Virus record (IMG/VR): IMGVR_UViG_3300032313_000840
Coordinates: 17,932 to 81,931 of that record
DNA length: 64,000 bases
Reading direction: 5' to 3' (one strand)
DNA from: a virus
Position numbers and translations under genes: made by a program. The notes under the pieces were generated by a model. It had not been told where the DNA came from. It saw only the letters and a list, made by a program, of their open reading frames with translations, and did no database searches. Positions 9,443 to 40,520 of the stretch are shown piece after piece (within the stretch, counting starts at the first letter, position 1; each line of letters begins with the position of its first letter).

Positions 9443-9780
9443 AAACCCCTTTTGAGGGGGGTTCAGGGTCGATTCAGATGCGGGAGACCAAACCCCACTG
9501 CTTCAAGCAGCCATTGCTAATTGGTTAGCAATTATTTTTTGCAACTGTTTATTTGCGACACTTGTTACCCGTGTCGGGTATCTCCTTCTTCATTACTTTG
9601 CGCCAATCTATTCCTTTCGACCCCGGTGACCCGAAGCCTAGGACTTCGGGAAATGCCCCGCTGCTACGAGGACTTGATTCGCCGTTTTCAGAGGATTGCA
9701 GATTCTCTGACTTAGGCTAATGGAGTCGGGGGGATTCGAACCCCCGTCTTGTACGCATTTCAATCCAATATCAACAATAC
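9443..9780 (-). ncRNA. ssrA: circularly permuted (two-piece) tmRNA, tag ANQLAMAA
   Basis: Minus strand: T-arm GGGGG-TTCGAAT-CCCCC plus CGACTCC-A (ends 9721) precedes GGGGTCG (starts 9624); G3:U70 wobble; resume context AAAAATAATT-GCT AAC CAA TTA GCA ATG GCT GCT TGA (9529-9503). Confidence 0.88.
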
Positions 9781-9792
9781 CATTTTATTTAG

Positions 9793-27149: not shown

Positions 27150-27990
27150 GGGGGGTAAAGGTGGGGGAGAGTGGGAGTGTGTGGGGTAAAGAAATTTTAA
27201 GAATATTTTGAGAAGATTGAGTTAGACCCCATCCCTCAAAGCCCCTTCGTTTGCCCTTTAACGCCCTTTAGAGCCCTTTTAAGCCCTTCAAGGCCCCTAG
27301 AGAGCCTTTAAAGCCCGTTCGCCTATAAGGCATTCTAGCCTGTCAAGCAATTCTTAGAGATATTATACAATTTTTAAGAAATTTTAGACAATTATAGAAA
27401 CCGTCCATACAATCCTAGATACCGTCCAGGCAATCCAGGCTCTGTCCAGCTCAATCCCGTCCAAGGGGAGAGCAATTATTATAATTTCCAGAATACCGTC
27501 CTATATCCCGTCCAGACCATGTCCTGGTGTGTGCCATACGGTATACCCCCAGGAACCCCTGATAGTAGCCAGGATTTTCAGAAATTTTTGAATCCTGTCC
27601 TGAATCCCGTCCGCTAATATTTTCAATTTTATTTGAAACTTCCAAGGGACGGATAACCATGGCACCGGCCAGACCGATAACCACGAGTCCGATAAGTATA
27701 GCACCGATAACGGTCAACGTCCGATAACCCCCTGCCTCACATCTGACGATTATAGGACACAGAGGCTGGGGGGTTATCGGTCGCATGAACAGTCTGATAA
27801 CTATACACCAGATCTGGGGGTAGTCAAGTACTAGACCACAAGTCCGATAAGACGTCTGAGCTGGAGCTCCTGGATCCAGGAACCCGGTCCAGTGAATTAA
27901 TTAAATTATTATTCTGTCCCAGAGACGCTCGCCGGCCTCTCCCAGCTCCAGCTGCACGCCGTCCCGTCCAGACTGCTAATATCGCCCCGT
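27150..27990. repeat. non-coding low-complexity repeat region (left border of GC-rich island)
   Basis: G-runs 27150-27187; ~10-bp periodic GCCCTT repeats 27241-27325; CCGTCC repeats; about 6 CCGATAA(C) repeats 27650-27852. Confidence 0.75.
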
Positions 27991-27993
27991 CCA

Positions 27994-28054
27994 GACTACT
28001 ATCAGGGGACGCGGAAATAAATCAAATTTCCTCGGAGGAAATTTGATAGTAGTC
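27994..28054. repeat. nested inverted-repeat module copy 1
   Basis: GACTACTATCAG...ATCAAATTTCCT-CGG-AGGAAATTTGAT-AGTAGTC. Confidence 0.85.
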
Positions 28055-28126
28055 CAGGTACACAGCCACCCAGGACTGGCTCTCTCCTTCCAGTCCTGGG
28101 CGACCATGTATGAATTAAAAACGATC

Positions 28127-30304
28127 TTACCTGCCCTTGCGATCCCGGAACTTCATGCCCTCCGGGAAGCAGGGGAGTCCGTAGATCCCGGAGTCCATCT
28201 TGCGGATGGGCTGACCCGCCACGATGTCCACATACCGGGTGAGGAACACGCGGCTACCTGCCCGCTTGCCCATCGTCTTGATGAACTGGTTCTTCACCTT
28301 GGTGAAGTTACCTCCGGTGGCAATCGCCTCCTCGTCCTTGACGGGCTTCGGGGTCTGAATGAGGAAGTACGAATCGTAGCCGGGGAAGGTATCTTCGTGC
28401 AGGACGAGGCATCCCTCCTTGAACGCTTCAGCCGCAGCCTTGTACCGCTCCGAATCTCCAACGGTCACACCACCCTTGTAGTGATGGGAGATCGAATCGG
28501 CATTCTTCTGCTTCTCCTGTTCGCTCAAGCAGAACTGCTCAAAGCAGCGTTCCGTCAGGATACGAGTGGGCATCACATACATTCCAACGCATCGGGCGTT
28601 CAACTTGGTGCGGAGCGAATTGAGCATGGCGCAGATGACGCCATCGGGCAGATTCGTCCTGCCGTTCTTGTTGTCGATGACGGTGACCGTATCAAGGATC
28701 TCGTTCGTCACGGTGAGGGAAGTACCTTCGCCGTACCAGTAGACTCCATCCTCCTTGGAGGTGCTGATGTGGTTGGGGCAACCGTCCGTCACGACCATGA
28801 TCGTGGGGATCTGAATGTTGTTCTCCTGCACCCATCCCGCCATAAACTGGGAAGTGAGGGCAATGCACTCCACCGTGGGCGTACCGTTCAGGGTGAGGTA
28901 ACGGGAAGTGGGGCGGGTCTGCTGCACATAGGTTTCGTAGATGTACGCACACAGACGCTCACGCTTGGCCGCATCGTCCTTGGAGGAGGCAATGTTCAGC
29001 AGCCTAGCCGTCCCGATGTGCATACCCGTGGGGCAGTCACGATTCAAAGCCTGCGCGCACCATTCACGGTCGAACTCGTAGGAGAACTTGTCGGGGTTTT
29101 GCTTCCTCCATGCATCACACGCAGCCTGATACTCGGGATCAAGGTTGCCGTAGACATCGGTGTAGCCGAACACCTCAAACGGGATCTTCGCCTTCTCGCA
29201 GAACCACACCAACTGGAGAACCTGAAGGTAGGCGTGGCCGATGGTCTGACCCATGCTGCCGCTGAAGTCAAGCATGAACACGATGCCGTGGTTCTTGCCG
29301 TCCTGCTTGACGATCTTCGACAGGAAGATATCGTCATGGGTGCGGTACTGGTGGAGGCGGTCAAGGTTCAGCATCCCGGTCTGCTTCGGACGCTCACGGC
29401 GGATCTCGTCCGCAGCCTTCTTGCGCTCAAACTGCGCGGCCATCTGACGGACGAACGCATCGGACTCACGGACGAACTGGCGGTACTCCTCAAGGAGCAG
29501 CGGCCTGTTGCTGTTGCCCTCGTAGTCGTTGAGGATGGTTTCCGTGCTGATGATGTGCTTGGACAGATCCTTGACCCCGGTGATGGTGACCACCGCGTCC
29601 TGATACTGCGAACCGTCCTTGCGGCGGAAGTCACCGGGGACATCGTTCTTGTCGCCCATGATCTTGTCCTGCTCCTTCTCACCCTGCTTGCCACCCTTGG
29701 CAGCAGCAGCCTCCATCTCCTCGCGCATCTTCTTCATGGAGGGGTGGTCGTACAGGAACTTGGCGACCTCAAAGACCTGATCGAAATTGACCACACCGTC
29801 CACCATGTCCACGACCTCCTGCTCCGTCCCCTCAAAGGTCATGGGGATGAAGCCGGGGATGCCGAACTTGAAGTGAATGTTGAGACGATTGAGGAACCCG
29901 GCCTTCGCCAAGTCCATCTTCTTGAAGCCGAACAGGTCAAGGTCTGCGATCTCCTTGTAGCCAAGGAAGAAGTCACGGCGAGTGCCGGGGAACTTCTGCT
30001 TCATCAACTTCTCGATGCGGACATCTTCGATGATGTTGGCGATCCGCTGAAGGAGCATGGCGTTGTAGCCGTCCGCCTCCGCAGCCTTCAACAACTCCTC
30101 GCTGCGCTCGTAGGGAGTCCACATGGCGTGGCTGATCTCGTGGGCCACGAGCATGGTCTTGACGGTTTCGGTCACATCCCACATCGGCATGATGAGGTGA
30201 CGCGACTTGACATCGAACGATGCGGTTTCAGCGTCCTTGGAGAAGGAGAACGAAATGTTCTCGGATGCGAGAGCCTTGGCAAAGATGGAGAGAGAGGTGT
30301 TCAT
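28127..30304 (-). CDS. CobT-like VWA-domain protein with N-terminal HExxH module (MoxR partner)
   Basis: AHEISH..IIEDVRIE; MIDAS DFSGSM, NGTP, VVTDG; leaderless start after TTGACT-N17-TACAAT. Confidence 0.85.
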   Translation of the reverse strand: MNTSLSIFAKALASENISFSFSKDAETASFDVKSRHLIMPMWDVTETVKTMLVAHEISHAMWTPYERSEELLKAAEADGYNAMLLQRIANIIEDVRIEKLMKQKFPGTRRDFFLGYKEIADLDLFGFKKMDLAKAGFLNRLNIHFKFGIPGFIPMTFEGTEQEVVDMVDGVVNFDQVFEVAKFLYDHPSMKKMREEMEAAAAKGGKQGEKEQDKIMGDKNDVPGDFRRKDGSQYQDAVVTITGVKDLSKHIISTETILNDYEGNSNRPLLLEEYRQFVRESDAFVRQMAAQFERKKAADEIRRERPKQTGMLNLDRLHQYRTHDDIFLSKIVKQDGKNHGIVFMLDFSGSMGQTIGHAYLQVLQLVWFCEKAKIPFEVFGYTDVYGNLDPEYQAACDAWRKQNPDKFSYEFDREWCAQALNRDCPTGMHIGTARLLNIASSKDDAAKRERLCAYIYETYVQQTRPTSRYLTLNGTPTVECIALTSQFMAGWVQENNIQIPTIMVVTDGCPNHISTSKEDGVYWYGEGTSLTVTNEILDTVTVIDNKNGRTNLPDGVICAMLNSLRTKLNARCVGMYVMPTRILTERCFEQFCLSEQEKQKNADSISHHYKGGVTVGDSERYKAAAEAFKEGCLVLHEDTFPGYDSYFLIQTPKPVKDEEAIATGGNFTKVKNQFIKTMGKRAGSRVFLTRYVDIVAGQPIRKMDSGIYGLPCFPEGMKFRDRKGR

Positions 30305-30361
30305 GCGCACATTGTAACCGATGCGGGGGAAGAAGTCAACCCACAAACAAAGTTTATTTTG

Positions 30362-30440
30362 CGTCCCATAACGTCCTGTCTGGCTACTATCAGGGCGTCC
30401 AATAAAATCAGAAAGCCCAGACGGGCTTTCTGATAGTAGC
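30362..30440. repeat. nested inverted-repeat module copy 2
   Basis: CGTCCCATAACGTCC..GCTACTATCAG..ATCAGAAAGCCC-AGAC-GGGCTTTCTGAT-AGTAGC. Confidence 0.88.
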
Positions 30441-30490
30441 TCACAGATGCTGCCTCTCCCCCCGCAAGGGGGGGAGAGGCATGAACAGCA

Positions 30491-30712
30491 TCAGACGGTG
30501 ACGGGAGCAATCAGAGGCGTCAGATCGTAGACGCCCTTGCTGTCCGTCTTGCAGTCCTTCAGCACCCAAGTCGGGATGCCCTTCATGTTGATGGACTGTG
30601 CGACTGCGAGGAGGTCGGCCTTGCTGAAGTTGTTGGTGTTACCGCCGTGAACGGTATCCGCGAACTGCTTGGCTGCGGCGACGAAACGATTGCGCTTGTT
30701 GAGGTATGGCAT
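30491..30712 (-). CDS. small protein paralogous to the N-terminal domain of the adjacent MoxR ATPase
   Basis: RNRF..A...FSKADL...IPTWVL....KGVYDL vs RKRNF..A...YTREQC...LPAWLV....RGKYII. Confidence 0.65.
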   Translation of the reverse strand: MPYLNKRNRFVAAAKQFADTVHGGNTNNFSKADLLAVAQSINMKGIPTWVLKDCKTDSKGVYDLTPLIAPVTV

Positions 30713-30734
30713 TTTCTTTTTCTTTCTTTCTTGG

Positions 30735-32084
30735 TTAGGCGTTCATGGCGTACTGGGTGTCGGTGTCGGGGTTGGACAACTTATCCAACTGTGCTTTCAA
30801 TTCTGCGATCTTCTTCTGCTCTGCGGTCAGAGAGTTCACCGGGTTGCTCACCGGGGCATCCTTCATCCCCTCCGGGACAGGGAGGATCGTGGGGTCGATC
30901 TTCGTGTAGAGGTTGAAGAACGCCTCCTTCGTGGACGCATCGAACCGCGTCAGCGTCAACTTGATGGCCTTCTCCTTGTCGCCAAAGATGGCGAACGCCT
31001 TGCACACTTCCTCCAAGCGGCGGGTGGTGATGATGTCATCCAGTCCGCCCTCCTTGAAGCCCATGCGGATCGTTTCCGCCCACTTCGTGAGGTACTGGGC
31101 GAACTCCTTGTCCTCCTTGCCGTATGCCTTCATCTTGCGGATGATGATACGCGCTTCGATGGTGCGATCCGCGTAGTCCTGCTCAAACCAGTAGGAGAAG
31201 CGGTCAAGGAACGCCTCGTTCATGCAGCGCGTACCCACGAACCGATCAGACTCGCCCTTGCCCTTGGTGTTGGCAGTCGCCACCACATTGAAGCCGGAAG
31301 CGGGCTTGATGAACATACCGATCTTCTTGATGTAGATGCCCTTGCCCTCAAGCACGGGCTGAAGGCACATCATGCGCTCCGTCCCGAGGTCGATCTCGTC
31401 CAACAGGAGGATAGAGCCGCGCTGCATGGCCTGAACCACGCCACCGAACACGAACTTCGTTTCGCCGTTGACGAGGCGGAAGCCACCGATGAGGTCATCC
31501 TCGTCCGTTTCGGCGGTGATGTTGACGCGAATGCACTCGCGGCCCGTGGAGGCGCAAATCTGCTCCACCATCGTGGTCTTGCCGTTGCCGGACATACCCG
31601 TGATGTAGACGGGAGCGAACTGCTTGGAGGCGAGGATGGTGGAGATGTCATCGTGGTGACCCCACGGAACGAAAGTCTCGTTCTTGACGGGGACGAGCGA
31701 AACATCGGAGGACGGCATGACGAGGTTGTAGGTGTTGCTGTTCATGTTGCTGATTGTATCACAAGTTTCGGAGGAAGTCAAGGTTTCGGAAGAAGATTCG
31801 GAAATATTTTCTTCCACGGTATCGGACTCTGCGGGATTGTATTCAAGCACGACCATCTCCGGGATGATGTACTTGCCACGACCTGCACGGCGGTTCTTGG
31901 GCTGAACCAGCCAAGCCGGGAGGACTCTGTAGGAATGCTCGCTACTAAGGGCATAGGACTGGCCAAGTGCCTCAAGGCATTGCTCACGGGTGTAGACTGC
32001 TTCCCCGATGGTCTGCGGAGTGCCGAACAGGATCTGAAGGGCATTGAGGAAGTTACGCTTGCGAATGTCGATGTTGCTGTTCAT
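30735..32084 (-). CDS. MoxR/CobS-type AAA+ ATPase
   Basis: Walker A GMSGNGKT, DEDDLIGG, Walker B LLLDEID, TANTKG, NEAFLDRF, TRRL. Confidence 0.92.
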   Translation of the reverse strand: MNSNIDIRKRNFLNALQILFGTPQTIGEAVYTREQCLEALGQSYALSSEHSYRVLPAWLVQPKNRRAGRGKYIIPEMVVLEYNPAESDTVEENISESSSETLTSSETCDTISNMNSNTYNLVMPSSDVSLVPVKNETFVPWGHHDDISTILASKQFAPVYITGMSGNGKTTMVEQICASTGRECIRVNITAETDEDDLIGGFRLVNGETKFVFGGVVQAMQRGSILLLDEIDLGTERMMCLQPVLEGKGIYIKKIGMFIKPASGFNVVATANTKGKGESDRFVGTRCMNEAFLDRFSYWFEQDYADRTIEARIIIRKMKAYGKEDKEFAQYLTKWAETIRMGFKEGGLDDIITTRRLEEVCKAFAIFGDKEKAIKLTLTRFDASTKEAFFNLYTKIDPTILPVPEGMKDAPVSNPVNSLTAEQKKIAELKAQLDKLSNPDTDTQYAMNA

Positions 32085-32145
32085 GCCGCAATCTTACCAC
32101 ACAATCTTTCTAAAGTCAAGTTTGGTCTGAAGATTTTTTATCCAG

Positions 32146-32236
32146 GTCCGATAACCGGTCCGATAACGTCCACTACTATCATAATAATATAAACAGCCTC
32201 AGAAATTCGCTTAAAGGGCGAATTTCTGATAGTAGC
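32146..32236. repeat. nested inverted-repeat module copy 3
   Basis: GTCCGATAAC x2, CTACTATCA..TCAGAAATTCGC-N7-GCGAATTTCTGA-TAGTAGC. Confidence 0.82.
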
Positions 32237-32310
32237 TCAAAGAAACAACCCCCGCTTGCGCGGGGGTTGGTATGAAAGGGAGTTTATCTCCCCGGCATCT
32301 CACCGGGTAC

Positions 32311-32556
32311 TTACACTCCCGTATTGTAGTAGTTCTTCTCGGTCTTGGACTCGCTGACCCTGCAAATCTTTTCAAGGGCCACGATGCGCTGCCACAACTT
32401 CTCTTGCTCAAGGTAGAGATCCTTGACCATCTCGTCTTGATGACGAACGATGCTGTTCAACTTCTCGTTCAGTCGAACGCGGAAGTAGGCGATGGCGAAG
32501 TAGGCGGCACCTGCGAGGGTGATGATGGTGACGAGCGTGTTGAGATCAATGTTCAT
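32311..32556 (-). CDS. small membrane-anchored early protein
   Basis: N-terminal TM plus coiled coil; TTGACA..TATAAT-N6-ATG. Confidence 0.7.
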   Translation of the reverse strand: MNIDLNTLVTIITLAGAAYFAIAYFRVRLNEKLNSIVRHQDEMVKDLYLEQEKLWQRIVALEKICRVSESKTEKNYYNTGV

Positions 32557-32658
32557 GTCTCTATTATACCTCTTGGTTTGGGGTTGTCAAGTCTCGGACG
32601 GAAAAAAAGTTTCTTTTAGTTACAACATCTGACCTAAATATAAGGAGGTGTTATAACT

Positions 32659-33036
32659 ATGAGACCAAAGAAAAATTTTTGGAAATGTCAGGACTGTGGA
32701 GTGGAACTAAAACGGAAACAAGTTCGATGCCGTGGATGCCATGATATCAGGCATCCTGATATGACCATTGAAGAATCGGCTTATGGTGACAAAGGTTGGC
32801 CAAACACTTATGCACGTATCAGAGATAAGGCCAAGTATGTCGTTAAGCATCTTGAATGGACCTGCTGTCGCAATTGTGGGTATGACAAACATTTTGAAAT
32901 TTGTCATATCAAAGCCATAAAAGATTTTTCAAAAGACACTTTATTAAGTGTAGTGAACGATCCTTCTAACCTTGTTCCTCTATGCCCAAATTGCCATTGG
33001 GAGTTTGATAGAGGAATCTTAAAATTGGACGGGTGA
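32659..33036 (+). CDS. HNH homing endonuclease
   Basis: CCRNCGY..EICHIK..NLVPLCPNCHWEFD; late promoter plus AGGAGG. Confidence 0.85.
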   Translation: MRPKKNFWKCQDCGVELKRKQVRCRGCHDIRHPDMTIEESAYGDKGWPNTYARIRDKAKYVVKHLEWTCCRNCGYDKHFEICHIKAIKDFSKDTLLSVVNDPSNLVPLCPNCHWEFDRGILKLDG

Positions 33037-33107
33037 GATTCGAACTCACGATGCCGAAGCGGGCAATTATAAGTCGCCTGCTGCTCTCCACCGCAGCGCG
33101 CCGTCCA
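33025..33107 (-). tRNA. atypical tRNA with UAU anticodon (Ile?) and extended variable arm
   Basis: TGGACGG/CCGTCCA acceptor, GGCGA-CTTATAA-TTGCC, V-arm CGCTTCGGCATC, GTGAG-TTCGAAT-CTCAC. Confidence 0.75.
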
Positions 33108-33108
33108 G

Positions 33109-33186
33109 TGGTGGAGCCTTCATACGGATGCTCCGGTGTCCGTGCAACCGTAGGTTGCCTCTATACGGTTGTTGTAGTTACCGCCA
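33109..33186 (-). ncRNA. candidate pseudoknotted small RNA ending in ACCA
   Basis: ACGGA/TCCGT and GGAGC/GCTCC interleaved stems followed by ACCA. Confidence 0.45.
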
Positions 33187-33246
33187 AACTCATTAATAAT
33201 ATATCTGATTGAGGTACATTGTACCACCTCTTTCTTGTTTGTCAAG

Positions 33247-33320
33247 CGTTCCCGGCAGGATTCGAACCTGCAACCTACAGATTAGAAATCTGTGGCACTA
33301 TCCAGTTGTGCTACGGGAAC
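33247..33320 (-). tRNA. tRNA-Arg(TCT)
   Basis: ACAGA-TTTCTAA-TCTGT. Confidence 0.92.
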
Positions 33321-33447
33321 AAATCGGAAGGGACTACTTCAACGGTACTAGGGGAAGAATGCATTTTTCTTTTAATACATTCCGCAAACCCACCGACCGT
33401 CTTCATACCCTTCCGGGTTGGGTGCCTTGAAGAAGGACACCCGGTAA

Positions 33448-33532
33448 TAGCGCGGGCGGGATTCGAACCCGCAATGTTTCTTATGTATCAGATTTTGAGT
33501 CTGACGTGTTTCGCCAGTTTCACCACCGCGCC
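33448..33532 (-). tRNA. tRNA-Leu(CAA)
   Basis: TCAGA-CTCAAAA-TCTGA, long V-arm. Confidence 0.9.
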
Positions 33533-33546
33533 ATGTAGGTATTGTA

Positions 33547-34017
33547 TCATACCTTTGTTGTCTTGTCAAGTCTCTTTTTGTTTCTGAAGTTATCGGTTGT
33601 TGAGTGACAGTTTGGGCAGAGAAGTTGAAGATTGGTTAGTTCGTTGTTCACTCTGTTGCCATCTACATGGTGAACTTCCAAAGCAATCGGAGACTGTAAC
33701 CAAGTATCATTGTTGCAGGACTCACATCTATGTCCTCTCAATTTTACTAAATTGATTTTAAGTCTGTGATTGTTTGTATACTGAGACCAATCTTTTTGCT
33801 GTGCGTCTTTATTCCATGCTTGGCCCTTCCAATGGCTAGTATCGATGGAATATTTTTGCAAATACTTTTTAGCAGTTTGGTAATTGCTTCCAGCCCTGCT
33901 GTCGTTCAATCCCAACTCTCTCAAGAATCCTGCAAGAGATGTAACTTTTGCAGCAATCTCGGCCAGTTCTTCTTTGGTCTTGCTCCCGATGGTGTTGTAT
34001 TTCTTTCTCATAGGCAT
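33547..34017 (-). CDS. HNH homing endonuclease
   Basis: CESC...LEVHHVDGNRVNN..NLQLLCPNCHS. Confidence 0.88.
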   Translation of the reverse strand: MPMRKKYNTIGSKTKEELAEIAAKVTSLAGFLRELGLNDSRAGSNYQTAKKYLQKYSIDTSHWKGQAWNKDAQQKDWSQYTNNHRLKINLVKLRGHRCESCNNDTWLQSPIALEVHHVDGNRVNNELTNLQLLCPNCHSTTDNFRNKKRLDKTTKV

Positions 34018-34051
34018 AGGCTCCTATACCTATTTAGAAACCTATGCCATT

Positions 34052-34348
34052 CTAAAACAGATCGGGGGTGCTGTCAAGATTTTTCTTTTTGTTTTCCGTC
34101 AGCCCAAACTTCTCATGCAGTTCCTCGTAGAACTCTGCGTTGGGTCGAACCACCTGCTCGTGGAGTCGGTTGCCGTTGATGGCAATCTGCGCTCCCTCTA
34201 CTGCATCGTAGTAGGCGGTGATCAGATCCTGTGGAGGGTTGGCATTGCCTTCAAGCCAATGTTCCATGATCAGGTCTGCGACAATTGCAACCCTGTCGTA
34301 CATCTGCAGGGCGAAGATTTTTTCATCGAAGTCTAGTGGGGTGTTCAT
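34052..34348 (-). CDS. hypothetical early protein
   Basis: GGAG RBS after tRNA-Lys. Confidence 0.6.
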   Translation of the reverse strand: MNTPLDFDEKIFALQMYDRVAIVADLIMEHWLEGNANPPQDLITAYYDAVEGAQIAINGNRLHEQVVRPNAEFYEELHEKFGLTENKKKNLDSTPDLF

Positions 34349-34363
34349 GTTGTTTTCTCCGAA

Positions 34364-34436
34364 TGGGTCCGGTGGGACTTGAACCCACAACCAATAGATT
34401 AAAAGTCTACTGCGCTACCAATTGCGCTACGAACCC
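34364..34436 (-). tRNA. tRNA-Lys(TTT)
   Basis: GTAGA-CTTTTAA-TCTAT; own TTGACA..TACAAT promoter. Confidence 0.92.
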
Positions 34437-34474
34437 GAATGCCCATTGTAACCGATGGGCTGCGGTTTGTCAAG

Positions 34475-34831
34475 TCAGGATTCGAAGTCCTCGTCCGCAT
34501 CCGGGTCGAACGGGTAGTACTCCCGCTCCATCTGACCTGCGTACTCCTCGTAGGTCATCTCCATGACCTGTGCGATCATCATCATGAAGGCGGCGAAACC
34601 CAAGTGAATCTCGGGCACCCTTCCGTCTGCCTTCTCGGTCAACATCCAGTTGGTGACGTACTGGATCCCGTTGGCGACGATCATGCGCTGACCCTCGTCC
34701 TTGTAGAAGTTCGGGTGTTCACCTGCGAACTGCATCAGGGTCTTGACGACATCCAACGGGTCGGGCTTGAAAGCCCCCATGTCGATGTTCTTGCGGGTGA
34801 AGAAACCATCGTACTTGTTCTGCGGTGACAT
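34475..34831 (-). CDS. hypothetical early protein
   Basis: 118 aa, GC3-rich codons. Confidence 0.7.
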   Translation of the reverse strand: MSPQNKYDGFFTRKNIDMGAFKPDPLDVVKTLMQFAGEHPNFYKDEGQRMIVANGIQYVTNWMLTEKADGRVPEIHLGFAAFMMMIAQVMEMTYEEYAGQMEREYYPFDPDADEDFES

Positions 34832-35049
34832 TAGCGAATCTCCTTGAGGGTGGTGTGCAGGGACATGACGAACTCGTATTCTTCTTCGGTGACCATATCA
34901 GGGCCGCTGATCTGCGTCAGGATGAAGTAGCCTTGAGCGAGGCGGGCAATGTCCTCATCGTACTCGGCCCAATCGGGGTGTTCGGTGACGAAGTTTGCGA
35001 TCTCGTTGATGAGGTCGGAGATGTCGGTGGTGGTGGTGGGCTTTCTCAT
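34831..35049 (-). CDS. hypothetical acidic early protein
   Basis: TTGACA..TACAAT-N6-ATG. Confidence 0.7.
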   Translation of the reverse strand: MRKPTTTTDISDLINEIANFVTEHPDWAEYDEDIARLAQGYFILTQISGPDMVTEEEYEFVMSLHTTLKEIR

Positions 35050-35363
35050 GTCGGTATTGTAACAGATTCGGGGACTGGTGTCAAGGTCACGCTGTGAAAA
35101 TGTTTTACTTGTTTTGCGTACCGGATGAAACTGTGCATCTTGTCATCCGGCAGTTCGACCGACATGTTTATTGTGTAGGTGTCGATGCCGAAAACAAAAC
35201 TTTGATCTACGTGCGTGTTCATTCGAACATCGAACATCCCGGTCGGATCTGCGAGGGCCAGGCATTGGAACACACTCTTGACCATCTTCTGCAACCTGCG
35301 CTTATGCCATCCCATGGAATGGGTCAGCGGGGAATGCATCTCAATGGTGACGGTGGCGATCAT
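35046..35363 (-). CDS. hypothetical early protein
   Basis: ATGA-coupled to upstream gene. Confidence 0.6.
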   Translation of the reverse strand: MIATVTIEMHSPLTHSMGWHKRRLQKMVKSVFQCLALADPTGMFDVRMNTHVDQSFVFGIDTYTINMSVELPDDKMHSFIRYAKQVKHFHSVTLTPVPESVTIPT

Positions 35364-35596
35364 TCGAAGTCTCCGTCATCGATGAAGTCGGGAACATCCC
35401 GGTCAAGGTCATCGTCGCCGTAGCAGTAGTCATCGTCAGAGTCGTACAGCCCGACCATGCGCTTGGCTTCTTCTTCGGTGTAGCCATCTTCCACCAGTTC
35501 AGCAACGGCTTCTTCCTCGGTAACATCGTCAAGGCAGGAGTCGTAGGCGTGATCGTCGTTGTCGTAGTCGCTGTCAATGTCGTAGGAGTTGTTCAT
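35360..35596 (-). CDS. extremely acidic small early protein
   Basis: MNNSYDIDSDYDNDD...; TTGACT..TACCAT-N6-ATG. Confidence 0.7.
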   Translation of the reverse strand: MNNSYDIDSDYDNDDHAYDSCLDDVTEEEAVAELVEDGYTEEEAKRMVGLYDSDDDYCYGDDDLDRDVPDFIDDGDFE

Positions 35597-35653
35597 GCCG
35601 GCATGGTAACACAGGATCCAAGGGAAGTCAAGAGAAAGAGAAAATATATTTGG

Positions 35654-35734
35654 CGTCCCATAACGTCCTGTCCGGGCTACTATCAGGGGGCGCATAAAAA
35701 TCAGATTCCCTCAGAGGGAATCTGATAGTAGCCC
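35654..35734. repeat. nested inverted-repeat module copy 4
   Basis: CGTCCCATAACGTCC..GGGCTACTATCAG..ATCAGATTCCCT-CAG-AGGGAATCTGAT-AGTAGCCC. Confidence 0.88.
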
Positions 35735-35873
35735 AAAGAACATGACCCACCCTAAAGAGGATGGGTCAGAGGTTTTGGAGGCTCGGTTACCTCCATGCCT
35801 TCTCCCGTTGCAACCGGAAGAATTGGTTTCAGGGCCCAGACCTAGGCCAACGCTCAAGCCCATCCCGTATTTT

Positions 35874-36173
35874 TTAGTTCATGTTCAGCATCTTCTCCGT
35901 CTTGCGAGAGTATGCTCCGATCCCGTCGATCTTATCCTCACCGATCAGGATCCAGTCCTTCTTGATGATGTCGAAGGCGCAGATGTAGCCTTCGATGGTG
36001 TGACGAGCACCAGTCGGCAGGTTGCCTCCCAGTTGCTTGATGAACACGGGGTCAGTCGTGATCTCACGCGAGGTTGGGGTGCCGTCCTTCTTCCTGAACG
36101 ACACAAAGAGCGTATCGTTGTTGGAGAGAGCAACGCGAAGAATCGTGGACATCGGAAGTTCGGTGGTGTTCAT
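35874..36173 (-). CDS. WYL_2/Sm-like SH3-barrel protein
   Basis: VSFRKKDGT..RE.TTDP...FDI.KKDW; leaderless start. Confidence 0.65.
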   Translation of the reverse strand: MNTTELPMSTILRVALSNNDTLFVSFRKKDGTPTSREITTDPVFIKQLGGNLPTGARHTIEGYICAFDIIKKDWILIGEDKIDGIGAYSRKTEKMLNMN

Positions 36174-36279
36174 GTGGGTATTGTACCTTGTGTGAGTGCG
36201 AAAGTCAAGTGGCGTGTAGATTTCTTTTAAACTTCCTCCCGGCCCCTTGCGGGGCCGGGAGGCTACATGCACCACCATG

Positions 36280-36669
36280 TTAGATCGGGAGGTTGACATT
36301 GCCGAACTGGGCGAAGTGACGGTTGAAGCATTCCGTCACGATGTTCTCAAGCGGCATGATCCTGACGCCAGTCTCCTTGAAGGAGGCGTCCGCTGCCTGT
36401 GCGTAGTAGGACACCGATCCGTCACGGATGTTGTCCACGAACTCCTGCCAGTCCAAACCCAGTTCCGTCACGATCATGTAGACGAGGGTCTTTTCGGCAT
36501 CGGTGAACCAGTCGAACGGCAGGGACACGGTGATCTCGCACAGGGCGAGGGCGGCGTTGATCTCGGCGGGTTCGTTCTTGAACTCCGGCGTCTTGTTGGC
36601 GGTCAGGACGAGGGAAACAACGAGGTCATCGATCTTGGCGAGGCGGACGGGCTTGGTGGTGTTCTTCAT
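36280..36669 (-). CDS. hypothetical early protein
   Basis: AAGGA RBS. Confidence 0.7.
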   Translation of the reverse strand: MKNTTKPVRLAKIDDLVVSLVLTANKTPEFKNEPAEINAALALCEITVSLPFDWFTDAEKTLVYMIVTELGLDWQEFVDNIRDGSVSYYAQAADASFKETGVRIMPLENIVTECFNRHFAQFGNVNLPI

Positions 36670-36687
36670 GGTGGTGTTCCTTGTGGG

Positions 36688-36936
36688 TTAGGCGGCGAGA
36701 ATCTTCTTGATGCGTTCGTCAGCACGGCGGGACATATCGGCGTCCAGTTCACGGGCCTTCTTCGCCTCCTCCTTGATGCGGCACAGGAGATACTGCAGTC
36801 CTTGGAGGTCGTTTTCTTCCATGTAGTCTGCGATGCCCTCCAAGTAGAGGAGCGAGGAGGCGAGGTAACCGTAGGCGTAGGCGTGGTCGTGGGTGACGGA
36901 GGCGGGGATCTTGACGGTGGTGGTGCTGTTCTTCAT
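36688..36936 (-). CDS. hypothetical early protein
   Basis: TACAAT-N6-ATG. Confidence 0.7.
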   Translation of the reverse strand: MKNSTTTVKIPASVTHDHAYAYGYLASSLLYLEGIADYMEENDLQGLQYLLCRIKEEAKKARELDADMSRRADERIKKILAA

Positions 36937-37017
36937 GTCGGTATTGTAACAGGTCGGGGTGCGAAAGTAAAGGGGGACAGAAAGAATATTTCGCTTTCTG
37001 TCCCCCCATGCAGGGGT

Positions 37018-37281
37018 TCAGGTGAGCGGGATTCCGTACTTCGCCTCAAGGGCTTCCTTCATGCCGGCGAGAACCTTCTCGCGGTTGCCCTTCAGACCGT
37101 ACTCCTTCTTGGCGAGAGCGTAGCAGGAGACGCCACGGGTCAGGCGCATCGGGGTGCCACGGGCTGCGGTCTTGATTTCGAACTTCAGACCGTTGTAGAT
37201 CATCAGTTCCCGGTAGGCGCAGATCTGTTCGGGGGTGTCGAGCATGATGCCGCCGTCGTTGTTGTTGGTGGTGCTGTTCAT
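37018..37281 (-). CDS. hypothetical early protein
   Basis: TTGCAA..TACAAT-N6-ATG; GLKFEIK..M.LTRG...K..YGLKG.R. Confidence 0.7.
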   Translation of the reverse strand: MNSTTNNNDGGIMLDTPEQICAYRELMIYNGLKFEIKTAARGTPMRLTRGVSCYALAKKEYGLKGNREKVLAGMKEALEAKYGIPLT

Positions 37282-37338
37282 GCGTACATTGTAACACACC
37301 TCGGTTGAAATTGCAAACGCAAAGAAAGAAATATTTGG

Positions 37339-37427
37339 CGTCCTATAACGTCCACTGGGCGGCGGGCTACTATCACGCGCCGTCCAATAAAAAATCAGGA
37401 AGTCCCTAGGGACTTCCTGATAGTAGC
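37339..37427. repeat. nested inverted-repeat module copy 5
   Basis: CGTCCTATAACGTCC..GCTACTATCA..ATCAGGAAGTCCCTAGGGACTTCCTGAT-AGTAGC. Confidence 0.88.
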
Positions 37428-37568
37428 TCAGCCCTCGCTGGCCACTTCCCTTTTCCCCTCCCTCCGCGCCTTCCGGGGGTCCCGGCTCTTCTTGCCCCAG
37501 GTTTTGGAGCGAAGCCGGATTCCCTCCCGGAAGGCGTCATGGACGAATTTGGCTGGGCGGTGGTTCAT
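37428..37568 (-). CDS. small basic protein (46 aa, MNHRPAKF...)
   Basis: ATGA-coupled to upstream gene; stop abuts module copy 5. Confidence 0.5.
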   Translation of the reverse strand: MNHRPAKFVHDAFREGIRLRSKTWGKKSRDPRKARREGKREVASEG

Positions 37569-38131
37569 TCGGCCTTCCCCCGAACGATGATCCACAGCAG
37601 GGCCTGCAGCGTGGCGGGGGCCATGCACACGGCACCCGTTCCGGCGATGGTGCGGATCGCGTCCGCGATGGCCCGGTACTCGGTCGCGTTGGGCGCATCC
37701 TTGCCCAGTCCCGCAGCGCGGCACATCCACACATCCACGACCACCGCGTCACGGTCTCCGGCGATGGCACGTGCGAACGCGTTGGTCTTCGGGCCGCGCA
37801 GGCCGTTGAAGCCCTGCCGGACGCATCGGTCGGCAGCGTCCACGTGGGAGCGGAGACCCTTCGGCGTGATGCCCTGCGCGTACTGGTATGCCTTAGCCTT
37901 GTTGTGCGCCCACGTCACGCGGGGCGAGAATGCGGACACAACGGACGCGGACACTTCCATGCTCCACTCGGGGCGCAGTACGCGCAGCGACTCCGCGAAG
38001 TCTCCGGCCTCAACGTACCACTTCTGCGCGGCAGCGTAGTCGAAGAGGGTAGCCGATGCGAGGTGGCTGATGAAGGATTCGATGGCGCGGGTGCGGACGG
38101 TTTCGTAACGGTTGGTGTGGGTGGTGCTCAT
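37565..38131 (-). CDS. phage protein with glycosylase-like (HhH-related) signature
   Basis: WY..A...SAFSP...W..N...GPKT.AF..AI.GD...VVVDVW..RAA...QA.LW. Confidence 0.65.
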   Translation of the reverse strand: MSTTHTNRYETVRTRAIESFISHLASATLFDYAAAQKWYVEAGDFAESLRVLRPEWSMEVSASVVSAFSPRVTWAHNKAKAYQYAQGITPKGLRSHVDAADRCVRQGFNGLRGPKTNAFARAIAGDRDAVVVDVWMCRAAGLGKDAPNATEYRAIADAIRTIAGTGAVCMAPATLQALLWIIVRGKAE

Positions 38132-38198
38132 GCGTACATTGTACCATGCCATGCCGGCTATGTCAATGGGTGGGGGCGGAATATTATAAATTCTTTCG

Positions 38199-38292
38199 CG
38201 TCCCATAACGCATCCAGGTGGGCCGGCTACTATCAGGCTCACCGCGTCCAGTCCCATAACATCAGCGGCCTCTGAGGCCGCTGATAGTAGCC
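38199..38292. repeat. nested inverted-repeat module copy 6
   Basis: CGTCCCATAACG..GGCTACTATCAG..ATCAGCGGCCTC-T-GAGGCCGCTGAT-AGTAGCC. Confidence 0.88.
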
Positions 38293-38382
38293 CCGCCCCA
38301 TAAACAACCTAGCCCCGAACGAATCGGGGCAGGGACGAATCCTTTTCGGTTGGTACGAGCACCACCTCGTTAGTTTATTGAA

Positions 38383-38467
38383 AGCGTAGTGGAGGACTTG
38401 CACCTCTGTTGCTCTGTATCAGATTGCTTTGATCAAAGCAACCCTAGCAGCCTGACGCTGGCTACGC
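38383..38467 (-). ncRNA. tRNA-like RNA without a canonical anticodon loop
   Basis: GCGTAG/CTACGC acceptor, CAGC/GCTG D-like arm, GAGG-TGCAAGT-CCTC T-like arm, 9-bp central stem with GATC loop. Confidence 0.55.
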
Positions 38468-38476
38468 GAAGTTTGG

Positions 38477-38707
38477 TTATTTGCGAGTGTTGCCCCGGTG
38501 GCCGTAGGCCACAAACAGAATCCCATCCGGGCTTCCTGCGAACAGCATCGTGAAGAAGCAGAGGAAGCAGGTGGAGGGCAGGAGCGCCCACCACAGCCAT
38601 GCGTGGGGAGCGGGTTGGGTCAGCGCCCAGACCATCACGCCCGAAACGAATGAGCCGAGGAGGATGACGAGGGCAGAGAAGAGACGATTGCGAATGGTGG
38701 TGTTCAT
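38477..38707 (-). CDS. small two-TM membrane protein
   Basis: Two hydrophobic segments; TTGACA..TACAAT-N6-ATG. Confidence 0.65.
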   Translation of the reverse strand: MNTTIRNRLFSALVILLGSFVSGVMVWALTQPAPHAWLWWALLPSTCFLCFFTMLFAGSPDGILFVAYGHRGNTRK

Positions 38708-38758
38708 GTCGGTATTGTATCAGTTCGTGGTGCGTATGTCAAGTGCGCCGAAAGAAAT

Positions 38759-39106
38759 TTAGTGATTGTTCTCCGGGCAGTCCGCCGGGATCGCCACTTC
38801 GATAACGTCCTCAATAACGAAGGAGCGGATGCCGCCACGAGTGTAGTCGTAGTAGACGGTGACCGTGGCGTCCCAGTCGTTATCGCTCTTGGCGATGGCG
38901 ATCTGCTCCATGCTATCACCGAACGCGGCGACAAGCGTGGGGTTCCGCGTGGCGAGCCGGCATTCGATCTGCCCGTTAGCCTTCTTGTAGGTGACCTGCA
39001 CCCACCCGGAGGCGAGGAGGGACATCATGCGATCATGACGCTCGGAGAGAGTGCCCGTGAAGAAGGGGAGGACGATGCGCGAACGATTGGTGCGAGTGGT
39101 GCTCAT
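38759..39106 (-). CDS. WYL_2/Sm-like SH3-barrel protein (DUF2693-like)
   Basis: VTYKKANG..R.ATRNP...YYDY.RGG.RSF. Confidence 0.72.
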   Translation of the reverse strand: MSTTRTNRSRIVLPFFTGTLSERHDRMMSLLASGWVQVTYKKANGQIECRLATRNPTLVAAFGDSMEQIAIAKSDNDWDATVTVYYDYTRGGIRSFVIEDVIEVAIPADCPENNH

Positions 39107-39112
39107 GGCACC

Positions 39113-39244
39113 ATTGTACCATAGACTGCTGCTGATGTCAACCCTTCGGAAAGAAATTTCTCAAAGTTTGTTCTAGGACTCAGGAGCACCGCTACAGAAA
39201 TTTCTTTCCGAAGGGTTGACATCAGCAGAGAAGTATGCTACCAT
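39113..39244. promoter_or_regulatory. divergent sigma70 promoter pair built on a perfect 33-bp inverted repeat
   Basis: 39129-39161 is the exact reverse complement of 39196-39228; each arm holds TTGACA; -10 TACAAT (left) and TACCAT (right), each 6 nt before ATG. Confidence 0.85.
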
Positions 39245-39250
39245 ACTCAC

Positions 39251-39523
39251 ATGAGCACCACCACCACCGACCCGAACGAATTCGAACACTTCCCCTGTGA
39301 CTGCCACCGCCCCGAGCACGCCTACACGGATTCGTTGTGCCCGATGTGCGAGGAGAACGCGGAGCGGGAGCGCGAGGCCAAGCGCGAGGCCCGCAAGGCG
39401 CAGGATGACGCGGAGCGCGATGCCGACAACGCGGCATTCGGTGCGGCCTGCGCGAGCATGAGCCCCGAAGACTGGGACGCGGACAACGACTGGCTAGCCA
39501 GCGCAGGATGGGGGGAAATGTAA
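39251..39523 (+). CDS. small acidic Cys-containing early protein
   Basis: CxC..CxxC; C-term DWLASAGWGEM. Confidence 0.7.
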   Translation: MSTTTTDPNEFEHFPCDCHRPEHAYTDSLCPMCEENAEREREAKREARKAQDDAERDADNAAFGAACASMSPEDWDADNDWLASAGWGEM

Positions 39524-40194: not shown

Positions 40195-40520
40195 AGGTAG
40201 GGGGGAGGGGGGTATAGGGTAGGGGGGATGTGTCCGAGTAGTAATTTGGGTCCCATACACGGGGGGGTTATCGGACGGGCTAGCCCCACCGACCCCTTCT
40301 AATTTTCTCTAATATTCTCAAAAAAACTTTTTGGCCACCAAATATCTCAAAAACCTTTTTGACCCCCTATTGTCAAATACCTCACATATAATAAAAACTT
40401 TTTGGCCCCCCTAAGCCTCTCAAAGTCCATTTATAAAACGACTCCCTTTTTCAAAATACATGGAATGCCATAAAAAAAATTTGGGCCCCCGAAGGAGCCC
40501 AAAAGTTTATTCAAAAATTT
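40195..40520. repeat. non-coding low-complexity region (right border of GC-rich island)
   Basis: G-runs 40195-40228; GGGGGTTATCGGAC; 4x AAAA(C)TTTTTGG/ACCC. Confidence 0.7.

Follow-up and report, generated by a model that had tools for sequence, protein, structure and literature searches.

Repeated hairpin modules with an invariant flanking word between the early genes of an uncultured freshwater phage family

Promoter-early stem-loop (PeSL) elements of T4-type phages are, in the excerpts of the two source papers considered here, repeated motifs that combine a host sigma-70-type early promoter consensus with an adjacent stable stem-loop serving as terminator or attenuator (Arbiol et al. 2010, PMC2839356). 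The same excerpts describe homologous exchange at these conserved terminator-promoter motifs with no dedicated recombinase, and recombination between copies that leads to insertions, deletions or replacements as well as mini-circles (PMC2839356; Comeau et al. 2014, PMC4122927). PeSL elements are the closest described system to the six modules (M1 to M6) reported here. The modules lie in a 64-kb stretch of phage DNA, hereafter the window, which comprises bases 17932-81931 of the 81.9-kb IMG/VR contig IMGVR_UViG_3300032313_000840 (G000; completeness estimate 44%). They occupy an island at ~28-40 kb of the window with a GC content of 52-60%, compared with 30-40% over most of the window. The island genes are on the minus strand, i.e. 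transcribed leftward. Each module carries a variable, covarying hairpin (t2) flanked by inverted copies of an invariant short word, the proximal and distal arms, and is usually preceded by a hairpin of the upstream gene (t1).

The modules are very probably terminator/promoter junctions between early units, with termination predicted from the sequence features described below. For the arms, a role as a protein site on duplex DNA has about even chances. Taken as a package, PeSL-like terminator/insulator-promoter junctions with docking words for a factor are the account we favor, with somewhat better than even confidence. The modules would thereby reveal the immediate-early organisation of a widespread family of large uncultured freshwater phages, in which early genes would be strictly insulated, leaderless and self-promoted units.

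An invariant word around a covarying hairpin

The exact 8-mer CTACTATCA occurs 13 times in the window, with no copy outside 27560-38290; twelve copies form six inverted pairs and the thirteenth is solitary. With at most one mismatch there are 21 matches against 12.0 expected, a number that 0 of 100 shuffles reach, and the 11-mer CTGATAGTAGC under the same tolerance has 12 matches against 0.54 expected. Across the 81.9-kb record, all nine exact 11-mers and all 13 cores of 8 nt fall inside the island. Scanning the window with a covariance model built from 36 modules gives exactly six strong matches, each of them on the minus strand (41.5-74.6 bits, E 1.8e-17 to 1.8e-08). At these six places the plus strand reaches 15.7-25.4 bits only, and the scan returned no seventh module. 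The six co-oriented copies and their coordinates given in a first-pass annotation of the window are thus confirmed, and a seventh, solitary arm at 27559-27569 is added to them. Rfam gave no match to the modules at the gathering score nor at E<=1, and a full-text literature search with the arm strings returned unrelated primers only.

Read on the minus strand, a module shows the t1 hairpin of the upstream gene and then G-CTACTATCAG, the last five letters of which are the foot of t2. The t2 stem is followed by CTGAT, usually TTTTATTGGACG, then CTGATAGTAGC. Next come GGAC boxes, between one and three of them and with GGACGTTATGGGACGC as their end, then an A/T tract and finally the -35, the -10 and the ATG. 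The stem has 7-9 bp and differs in each copy, and the loop has 3-7 nt. The word, fused to the variable hairpin as CTACTATC, recurs as the inverted copy GATAGTAG beyond GGACG boxes, after which come further GGAC/GTTATGGGAC boxes. Arms are 36-94 bp apart, and neither arm-to-arm nor arm-to-promoter distances show helical phasing. Direct reading supports the earlier description of CGTCC-ATAACG boxes in copies 2-6 and of an inner hairpin that is different in every copy. The outer repeat, described there as 9-13 bp long, is indeed conserved but is better described as an invariant core of 8-9 nt (CTACTATC, then A/C).

Base pairing in t2 is maintained by compensating changes. In the alignment of the 36 modules, 99.0% of t2 cells are paired against 71.5% in shuffles, and 122 cells carry double-sided changes against 29.2 in shuffles, with 0/500 shuffles reaching 122. 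Sliding the partner by 1 column brings pairing down to ~50%. The inner stem thus covaries, as had been proposed. The accompanying idea of two alternative folds through a shared CTGAT is not supported, as covariation speaks for the inner pairing only: the foot position of t2 pairs with its inner partner in 36/36 modules (GC 25, AU 11), and the same position is unpaired with the distal arm in 16/36. In the set of 77 unique modules, arm-to-arm complementarity at the two core-flanking positions holds for 34 and fails for 43. Variants of the word (CAAC/GTTG, CCG/CGG; T->A at word position 2 in G001 and L113, A->C at word position 9 in G007, G008 and other relatives) are mostly uncompensated in the partner arm. 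As no variation is seen in the nine core pairs, they are evidence neither for nor against pairing.

The word also occurs in other arrangements. A solitary arm lies 358-442 bp beyond the last module in 14/14 genomes holding that end, and is tandemly doubled in G001 and G013. In the window the solitary arm reads GCTACTATCAG on the minus strand (27559-27569) and stands 437 bp past M1, with an array of GGAC(G/A)G boxes after it. At the junctions of G011 (L114, G011:84000-99000; positions 86435, 89256 and 93350), two or three direct GATAGTAG repeats stand 16-28 bp apart after t1, with no t2 and no inverted partner. The solitary, doubled and direct-repeat forms therefore argue that the word works on its own. 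The best reading of these sequence patterns is that the arms would act as a sequence word and not as base-pairing partners. A separate observation concerns two relatives, in which GATAGTAG stands immediately upstream of a tRNA-like gene and on its strand, 2 nt from the 5' end of the gene (G011:97871, in L114, and L091:7249), an arrangement that does not occur in the window.

Predicted terminators, promoters and a possible reader of the word

A search for the pattern TTGAC-N17-20-TAnnnT-N4-9-ATG returned 13 minus-strand sites at 30302-39141 and three diverging plus-strand sites at 39216, 39621 and 39939. A consensus scan found 31 promoter-like sites against 8.7 expected. The typical early promoter consists of TTGACA, 17 nt, an extended TGnTACAAT, 6 nt and the ATG. 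Since promoters stand directly at ATGs on both strands, the island is a divergent set of leaderless early units of host-sigma type. Such a promoter lies downstream of five of the six modules (M1 has none). Upstream, a t1 hairpin is visible by reading at five of six modules and terminator-like in the consensus scan at three of six, and the same scan calls t2 terminator-like on the minus strand in all modules except M6, which has no U-tract. The placement after a gene block and ahead of the next early promoter, as first annotated, was borne out, and so were the U-rich tails of four copies (M1, M2, M4 and M5, on the minus strand). The suggestion of a switchable terminator is supported in part. 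A terminator role of the inner hairpin is supported, given that it covaries and is called in five of six copies. The switch is not supported, because the distal arm is downstream of the U-tract and the position common to both folds covaries with its inner partner only. A test asking for folds of <= -12 kcal/mol in the 60 nt upstream was discarded as uninformative: 74/76 modules pass, and so do 176/300 random 60-mers of the island. The early proteins starting at 30302-39141 often begin with M-(N/S)-(S/T)-T-T, and the repeat families D1, D2 and D5 run from the promoter into CA-rich first codons. These codons are possibly a downstream signal for leaderless translation.

All module features in the window are on the minus strand and are given here in the direction of transcription. 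M6 (38199-38292, 60.4 bits) follows a terminator-like t1 hairpin called by the consensus scan at 38312-38330 and consists of the proximal arm (38281-38291), t2 (38261-38285), the distal arm (38226-38236) and boxes (38199-38210), with the leaderless promoter of the DUF7178 gene downstream at 38129-38166. M5 (37339-37428, 74.6 bits) has its proximal arm at 37417-37427, t2 at 37394-37421 with the tail TTTTTATTGG, the distal arm at 37366-37376, boxes at 37339-37353 and a leaderless promoter at 37279-37316. Upstream of M4 (35654-35733, 72.6 bits), the consensus scan places a t1 intrinsic terminator at 35743-35768. The module comprises the proximal arm (35722-35732), t2 (35700-35726, tail TTTTATGCGC), the distal arm (35676-35686) and boxes (35654-35668), and its leaderless promoter is at 35594-35631. 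M3 (32146-32237) has the lowest score, 41.5 bits. It is preceded by a t1 intrinsic terminator from the same scan (32246-32269), contains the proximal arm (32226-32236), t2 (32199-32229), the distal arm (32173-32181) and two GTCCGATAAC boxes (32146-32171), and leads to the leaderless promoter of the CobS-like AAA_5 ATPase gene at 32082-32119. At M2 (30362-30441, 71.8 bits), direct reading finds a GC-rich t1 hairpin with no U-tract at 30452-30480. The proximal arm (30430-30440), t2 (30407-30434, tail TTTATTGGAC), the distal arm (30383-30393) and GGACG/GTTATGGGAC boxes (30362-30376) precede the leaderless sigma-A promoter of the 725-aa CobT-like gene at 30302-30339 (TTGACT, 17 nt, TACAAT, 6 nt, ATG). 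M1 (27994-28056, 64.3 bits) is the last module, located after the 725-aa gene and with no promoter after it, and has its proximal arm at 28043-28052, t2 with a U-rich tail at 28021-28047 and the distal arm at 27996-28004. A/T tracts were read directly between the proximal box and the -35 in M2-M6. Counted from the start of the proximal box, the -35 is 22 nt away in M2, M4 and M5; this distance is 26 nt for M3 and 32 nt for M6. The distal arm is 44-60 nt from the -35 across the window.

The t1 hairpin of the 725-aa gene (28059-28110, minus strand) has a covarying stem and the loop AAGGAGAGAG. This purine loop is invariant in 16/16 orthologous loci with data and resembles a Shine-Dalgarno sequence, though the phage genes are leaderless. 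It could be a conserved RNA motif.

In the mechanism that we propose, host sigma-A RNA polymerase would read the GC-rich early island leftward, and each module would be the junction of two early units. Transcription arriving from upstream would be halted by tandem hairpins, the gene-specific t1 and then t2, usually with a U-tract. A consensus promoter ~45-60 bp further on would restart transcription exactly at the ATG, as a leaderless message would require a 5'-terminal AUG. Heavy insulation might be needed because read-through would occlude the promoter and yield an untranslatable message. The word CTACTATC (then A/C) on either side of t2 would be a sequence-specific docking site and not a pairing partner, and the GGACG/GTTAT(C/G)GGAC boxes between t2 and the promoter may be docking sites too. 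The word would most likely be read by a protein that sits on duplex DNA and either regulates the early units or fences them off. The shared words might also serve as short homologies for segment exchange between related phages, as in PeSL, because they are identical at all junctions and across relatives (we infer this causal direction). Regulator sites had been among the first hypotheses for the modules and, as a duplex-DNA word, are the best reading of the arms; for the cruciform and stepwise DNA entry variants of that hypothesis we found no evidence. More tentatively, the 8-nt CTACTATC may be the address of a dedicated phage- or host-encoded factor on the terminator flanks and at the island end. 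Such a factor could be a polar RNA polymerase fence or an off switch of the early island, with the word doubling as a crossover point. If true, this would be a regulatory layer not described for PeSLs or other phage early regions. The word is fixed while neighboring proteins drift to ~50% identity and could be used as bait for its reader, perhaps a novel regulator of the early genes or else a polar barrier to transcription. The finding becomes ordinary if the arms prove to be merely part of terminator design.

Several points weigh against docking words at insulated junctions. Only 42/77 modules of the family meet a U-tract threshold of at least five T in the 8 nt after t2. M6 and some modules of relatives have no U-tract, and a few collapsed modules lack it entirely. 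The arm to -35 distance is variable (44-60 bp) and unphased, which makes a classical activator site unlikely. No recognisable DNA-binding domain (HTH, RHH or other) was found by Pfam and PHROGs scans of 26 island and flanking open reading frames (ORFs). The 9-nt cores of the first 47 modules are invariant by search design, and only the protein-anchored sample described below and the 1-mismatch scan are free of this ascertainment bias. The RNA data are metatranscriptome contigs, which carry no transcript ends. Every t2 has the proximal arm joined to its foot, which a pure duplex-DNA site leaves unexplained. In minimum free energy folds of the full-length RNA or single strand (-20.8 to -34.6 kcal/mol, z -3.6 to -5.5), each of the six modules has its arms paired around t2, and a structural role of the arms is thus thermodynamically possible.

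The last two points also speak for an RNA clamp, which we regard as unlikely. In transcripts that read through t2, the distal and proximal arms would pair and enclose t2 in a long bulged helix. Such a helix might be a processing or stability element, for example one at which a double-strand-specific RNase cuts read-through RNA off the next leaderless gene. The collapsed modules in G001 and L113 fit this explanation as well, being near-perfect hairpins of ~20 bp with the arms as their base. However, the arms do not covary (see the foot and flanking positions above), the distal TGAT is conserved though redundant for a clamp, and solitary arms and tandem direct repeats exist that have no partner.

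A still less probable explanation is that the arms are -10-like elements (TACTAT with GC ahead) read by host sigma-A, either as pause or trap sites aiding termination from both directions or as weak convergent antisense promoters. The hexamer in the word does have A at position 2 and T at position 6, early promoters of relatives often read GCTAnnAT, and both arms point symmetrically into t2. The true -10 elements of the island, though, vary (TACAAT, TAAGAT, TATAAT, TACCAT), whereas the 8-mer including its flanking C's is invariant. At the arms, neither a -35 with constant spacing nor a TG extension is seen, and promoters aimed into a hairpin make little sense. We retain the duplex-DNA word as the preferred reading of the arms. 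Among further candidates, Chi-like sites were rejected as they have no reason to flank hairpins, a three-frame stop signal because the three stops of an arm share one frame, and T7-like or N4-like phage-polymerase promoters because both arms are directed at the hairpin and the island already has consensus promoters of host type. DnaA, NtcA, Fur and IHF boxes may resemble the arms but seem to fit poorly and were dropped.

Conserved placement and mosaic joints in relatives

The modules belong to a phage family found in more than 25 IMG/VR contigs as well as in lake metagenome and metatranscriptome runs. Every genome used in the comparison is a metagenomic fragment. A scan of IMG/VR with an exact pattern (18 palindromic letters, 31 allowed spacings) gave 73 loci, of which by rough estimate some tens are expected by chance. 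In 47 unique matches the hairpin abuts one arm, and many contigs carry 2-6 copies. A pattern with 22 fixed letters had 2 matches, probably by chance, across contigs of 185,579 bacterial and archaeal species. Given these two matches only, the element belongs to the phage family and not to the host genome. The islands of ten relatives contain 5-7 modules each, all oriented along the direction of transcription. Of the 8-mer copies, 13/13 in G000 and 13/14 in G005 lie inside the island, and a reversed-word control has 0-6 copies per record. In G008 an extra arm pair lies at the very start of a 126-kb contig (G008:C1:101-170) and the other contig end lies inside the island, which suggests that this contig is circularly permuted or nearly complete.

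Module positions are conserved along with the genes around them. Clustering of ORFs shows the same junctions in the window and in G001-G005: before the DUF7178 gene, the next small-gene group, a third group and the CobS-like gene, and both before and after the CobT-like gene. A protein-anchored sample of loci was collected through the 725-aa CobT-like protein (51-96% identity), independently of the arms. Both 8-mer cores are present upstream in 15/17 of these loci and downstream in 14/16. The exceptions are one locus with a one-letter variant and one (L103/G011) with a different form. Modules at the same junctions persist even where the flanking proteins are only 51-57% identical.

Such persistence stands against a miniature transposable element (MITE, REP-like) spreading through the island, the least credible of the explanations considered. 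Short terminal inverted repeats and several copies would fit a MITE. On the other side, the interior is wholly different between copies, the flanks show no target-site duplication, bacterial genomes hold two pattern matches only and no transposase was found in the five contigs searched (see below).

Conserved order coexists with mosaic joints at the modules. L080, L043 and the window share a common module in different combinations of upstream flank, hairpin and downstream flank. L080 has the upstream gene of L043 and L025, the downstream promoter region of the window and a t2 stem found in neither, and its switches from one to the other come at the proximal arm and directly behind the distal one. 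When the window is compared with G003, homology stops ~40 nt past M5's distal arm, at a spot where another gene takes the place of two, and resumes exactly at the proximal arm of M4. More generally, homology blocks between the window and G001 or G003 end or resume at arms. In G001, an identical collapsed module occupies two neighboring junctions. These joints favor the milder, PeSL-type idea, homologous exchange at conserved motifs. Clustering of flanks and hairpins to count incongruent combinations was too dependent on thresholds, and the hand-checked L080 example was used instead.

The stronger version of that idea, raised in the first-pass annotation, attC-like or structure-specific sites at which a dedicated recombinase acting on a folded strand moves promoter-gene-terminator cassettes, fares poorly and we consider it very improbable. 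The conserved outer inverted repeats around a variable yet paired center would agree with it, as would the replacement of the hairpin alone between otherwise identical modules and the identical modules at two G001 junctions. However, six-frame searches of G000, G001, G005, G008 and G009 for a tyrosine recombinase (Phage_integrase, PF00589) and for a Y1 HUH transposase (Y1_Tnp, PF01797) found neither in any of the five contigs, with the integrase control positive in 14/14 genomes and the Y1_Tnp controls positive too. These contigs are each incomplete (44-75%), cover both sides of the island (~130 kb one way and ~65 kb the other) and, taken together, are likely to cover the genome. Each cassette comes with a promoter or promoters of its own, covariation between the arms is lacking, and the G011 lineage keeps the word as hairpin-less direct repeats. 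A comparison of cassette order among relatives had been suggested as a check. Junction order is identical in six genomes (the window and G001-G005), and this fixed order therefore speaks against frequent cassette shuffling.

The island and its closest known counterparts

The CobS-like AAA_5 ATPase gene (30735-32084; phrog_249) and the gene of the 725-aa CobT-like protein (28127-30304; phrog_459), both on the minus strand, were identified by Pfam and PHROGs scans. They are separate early units, each fenced by modules. Other larger island products are a DUF7178 protein, a WYL_2 protein and an HNH endonuclease. Ten large ORFs gave no structural Pfam match, in scans that included no search aimed at T4 hallmark genes. 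A megablast of the island against 50,697 phage records returned 0 matches, and the sole tblastn match of a 774-aa protein was irrelevant (10%).

Near-identical DNA is present in freshwater and lake metagenome runs, and metatranscriptome contigs contain parts of it. Four metatranscriptome runs hold parts of the island as Logan contigs, with low depth in the bins holding M3-M6. None of the metatranscriptome pieces listed bridges a module, from which nothing is concluded as contigs cannot show RNA ends. Two contig joints (30305->35643 and 32349->36167) have short sides of 24 and 34 letters, may stem from relatives or repeats, and were not used.

Several other features of the window were recorded. 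Where early transcription diverges, a long inverted repeat at 39089-39268 has 73-nt arms that are 81% complementary and 34 nt apart, with one of two divergent promoters in each arm. At the right border of the GC-rich island (40322-40490) lie 4 copies of AAAAACTTTTTGGCCCCC-like 18-mers. Beyond the last module, a 111-aa ORF (27451-27830, minus strand) includes a membrane-like VIG-rich segment, repeated GTTATCGG units and, inside it, the solitary arm. It has a conserved promoter-like site at 27827-27800, and the stretch after this site is kept at the nucleotide level in relatives. This ORF is only tentatively coding, as the arm in G001 is duplicated in tandem by 11 nt and the reading frame would then be shifted. 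Outside the island, a phage-encoded two-piece permuted tmRNA at 9503-9781 on the minus strand (Rfam RF04321, 75.2 bits) adjoins tRNA genes, and the window has nine tRNA/tmRNA calls in total.

Known systems share individual features with the modules. Like tandem intrinsic terminators, the modules have a covarying GC-containing hairpin with a U-tract, and two hairpins in a row at the end of a unit. They differ by the conserved word, which is joined to the foot of the hairpin and comes back behind the U-tract, and by copies that have no U-tract. The RNase III sites between T7 early genes are bulged two-part helices, as the folded modules would be, although here each unit has its own promoter and the outer helix does not covary. 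REP and BIME elements are, like the modules, inverted repeats in intergenic DNA close to terminators, and some of these elements bind host proteins. In contrast to them, the modules occur in a single phage island only, vary in their interior and yield only the two pattern matches in bacterial genomes, and the absence of PF01797 from the five contigs separates them from IS200/IS605 ends or REP with a Y1 transposase. Integron attC sites resemble the modules in their conserved outer inverted repeats, variable palindromic center, one site per cassette and co-orientation. The modules differ from attC in having no integrase found in the five contigs searched, at least one own promoter per cassette and a fixed order, and in arms whose behavior is that of a word, not of a fold, and that also exist in direct-repeat and solitary forms.

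The likeness to PeSL elements extends furthest. In the source excerpts on PeSL as in our modules, a terminator-like stem-loop is combined with an A/T-rich tract and an early promoter of host-sigma consensus into a repeated intergenic element that lies between small early genes, most of them unknown. PeSL elements serve as points of exchange between related phages, and the modules probably do so too. Compared with PeSL as described there, the t2 hairpin of the modules is flanked by inverted copies of an invariant 8-9 nt word and accompanied by GGACG/GTTATSGGAC boxes. The hairpin sequence is free in the modules, whereas PeSL hairpins often consist of polyG/polyC. The modules are further set apart by a second, gene-specific hairpin ahead of t2 and by leaderless promoters. 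Their junctions are positionally conserved over deep divergence and do not mainly flank variable ORFans as in the PeSL excerpts. The modules would thus extend the PeSL idea, regulatory junctions that double as recombination joints, beyond T4-type coliphages and vibriophages.

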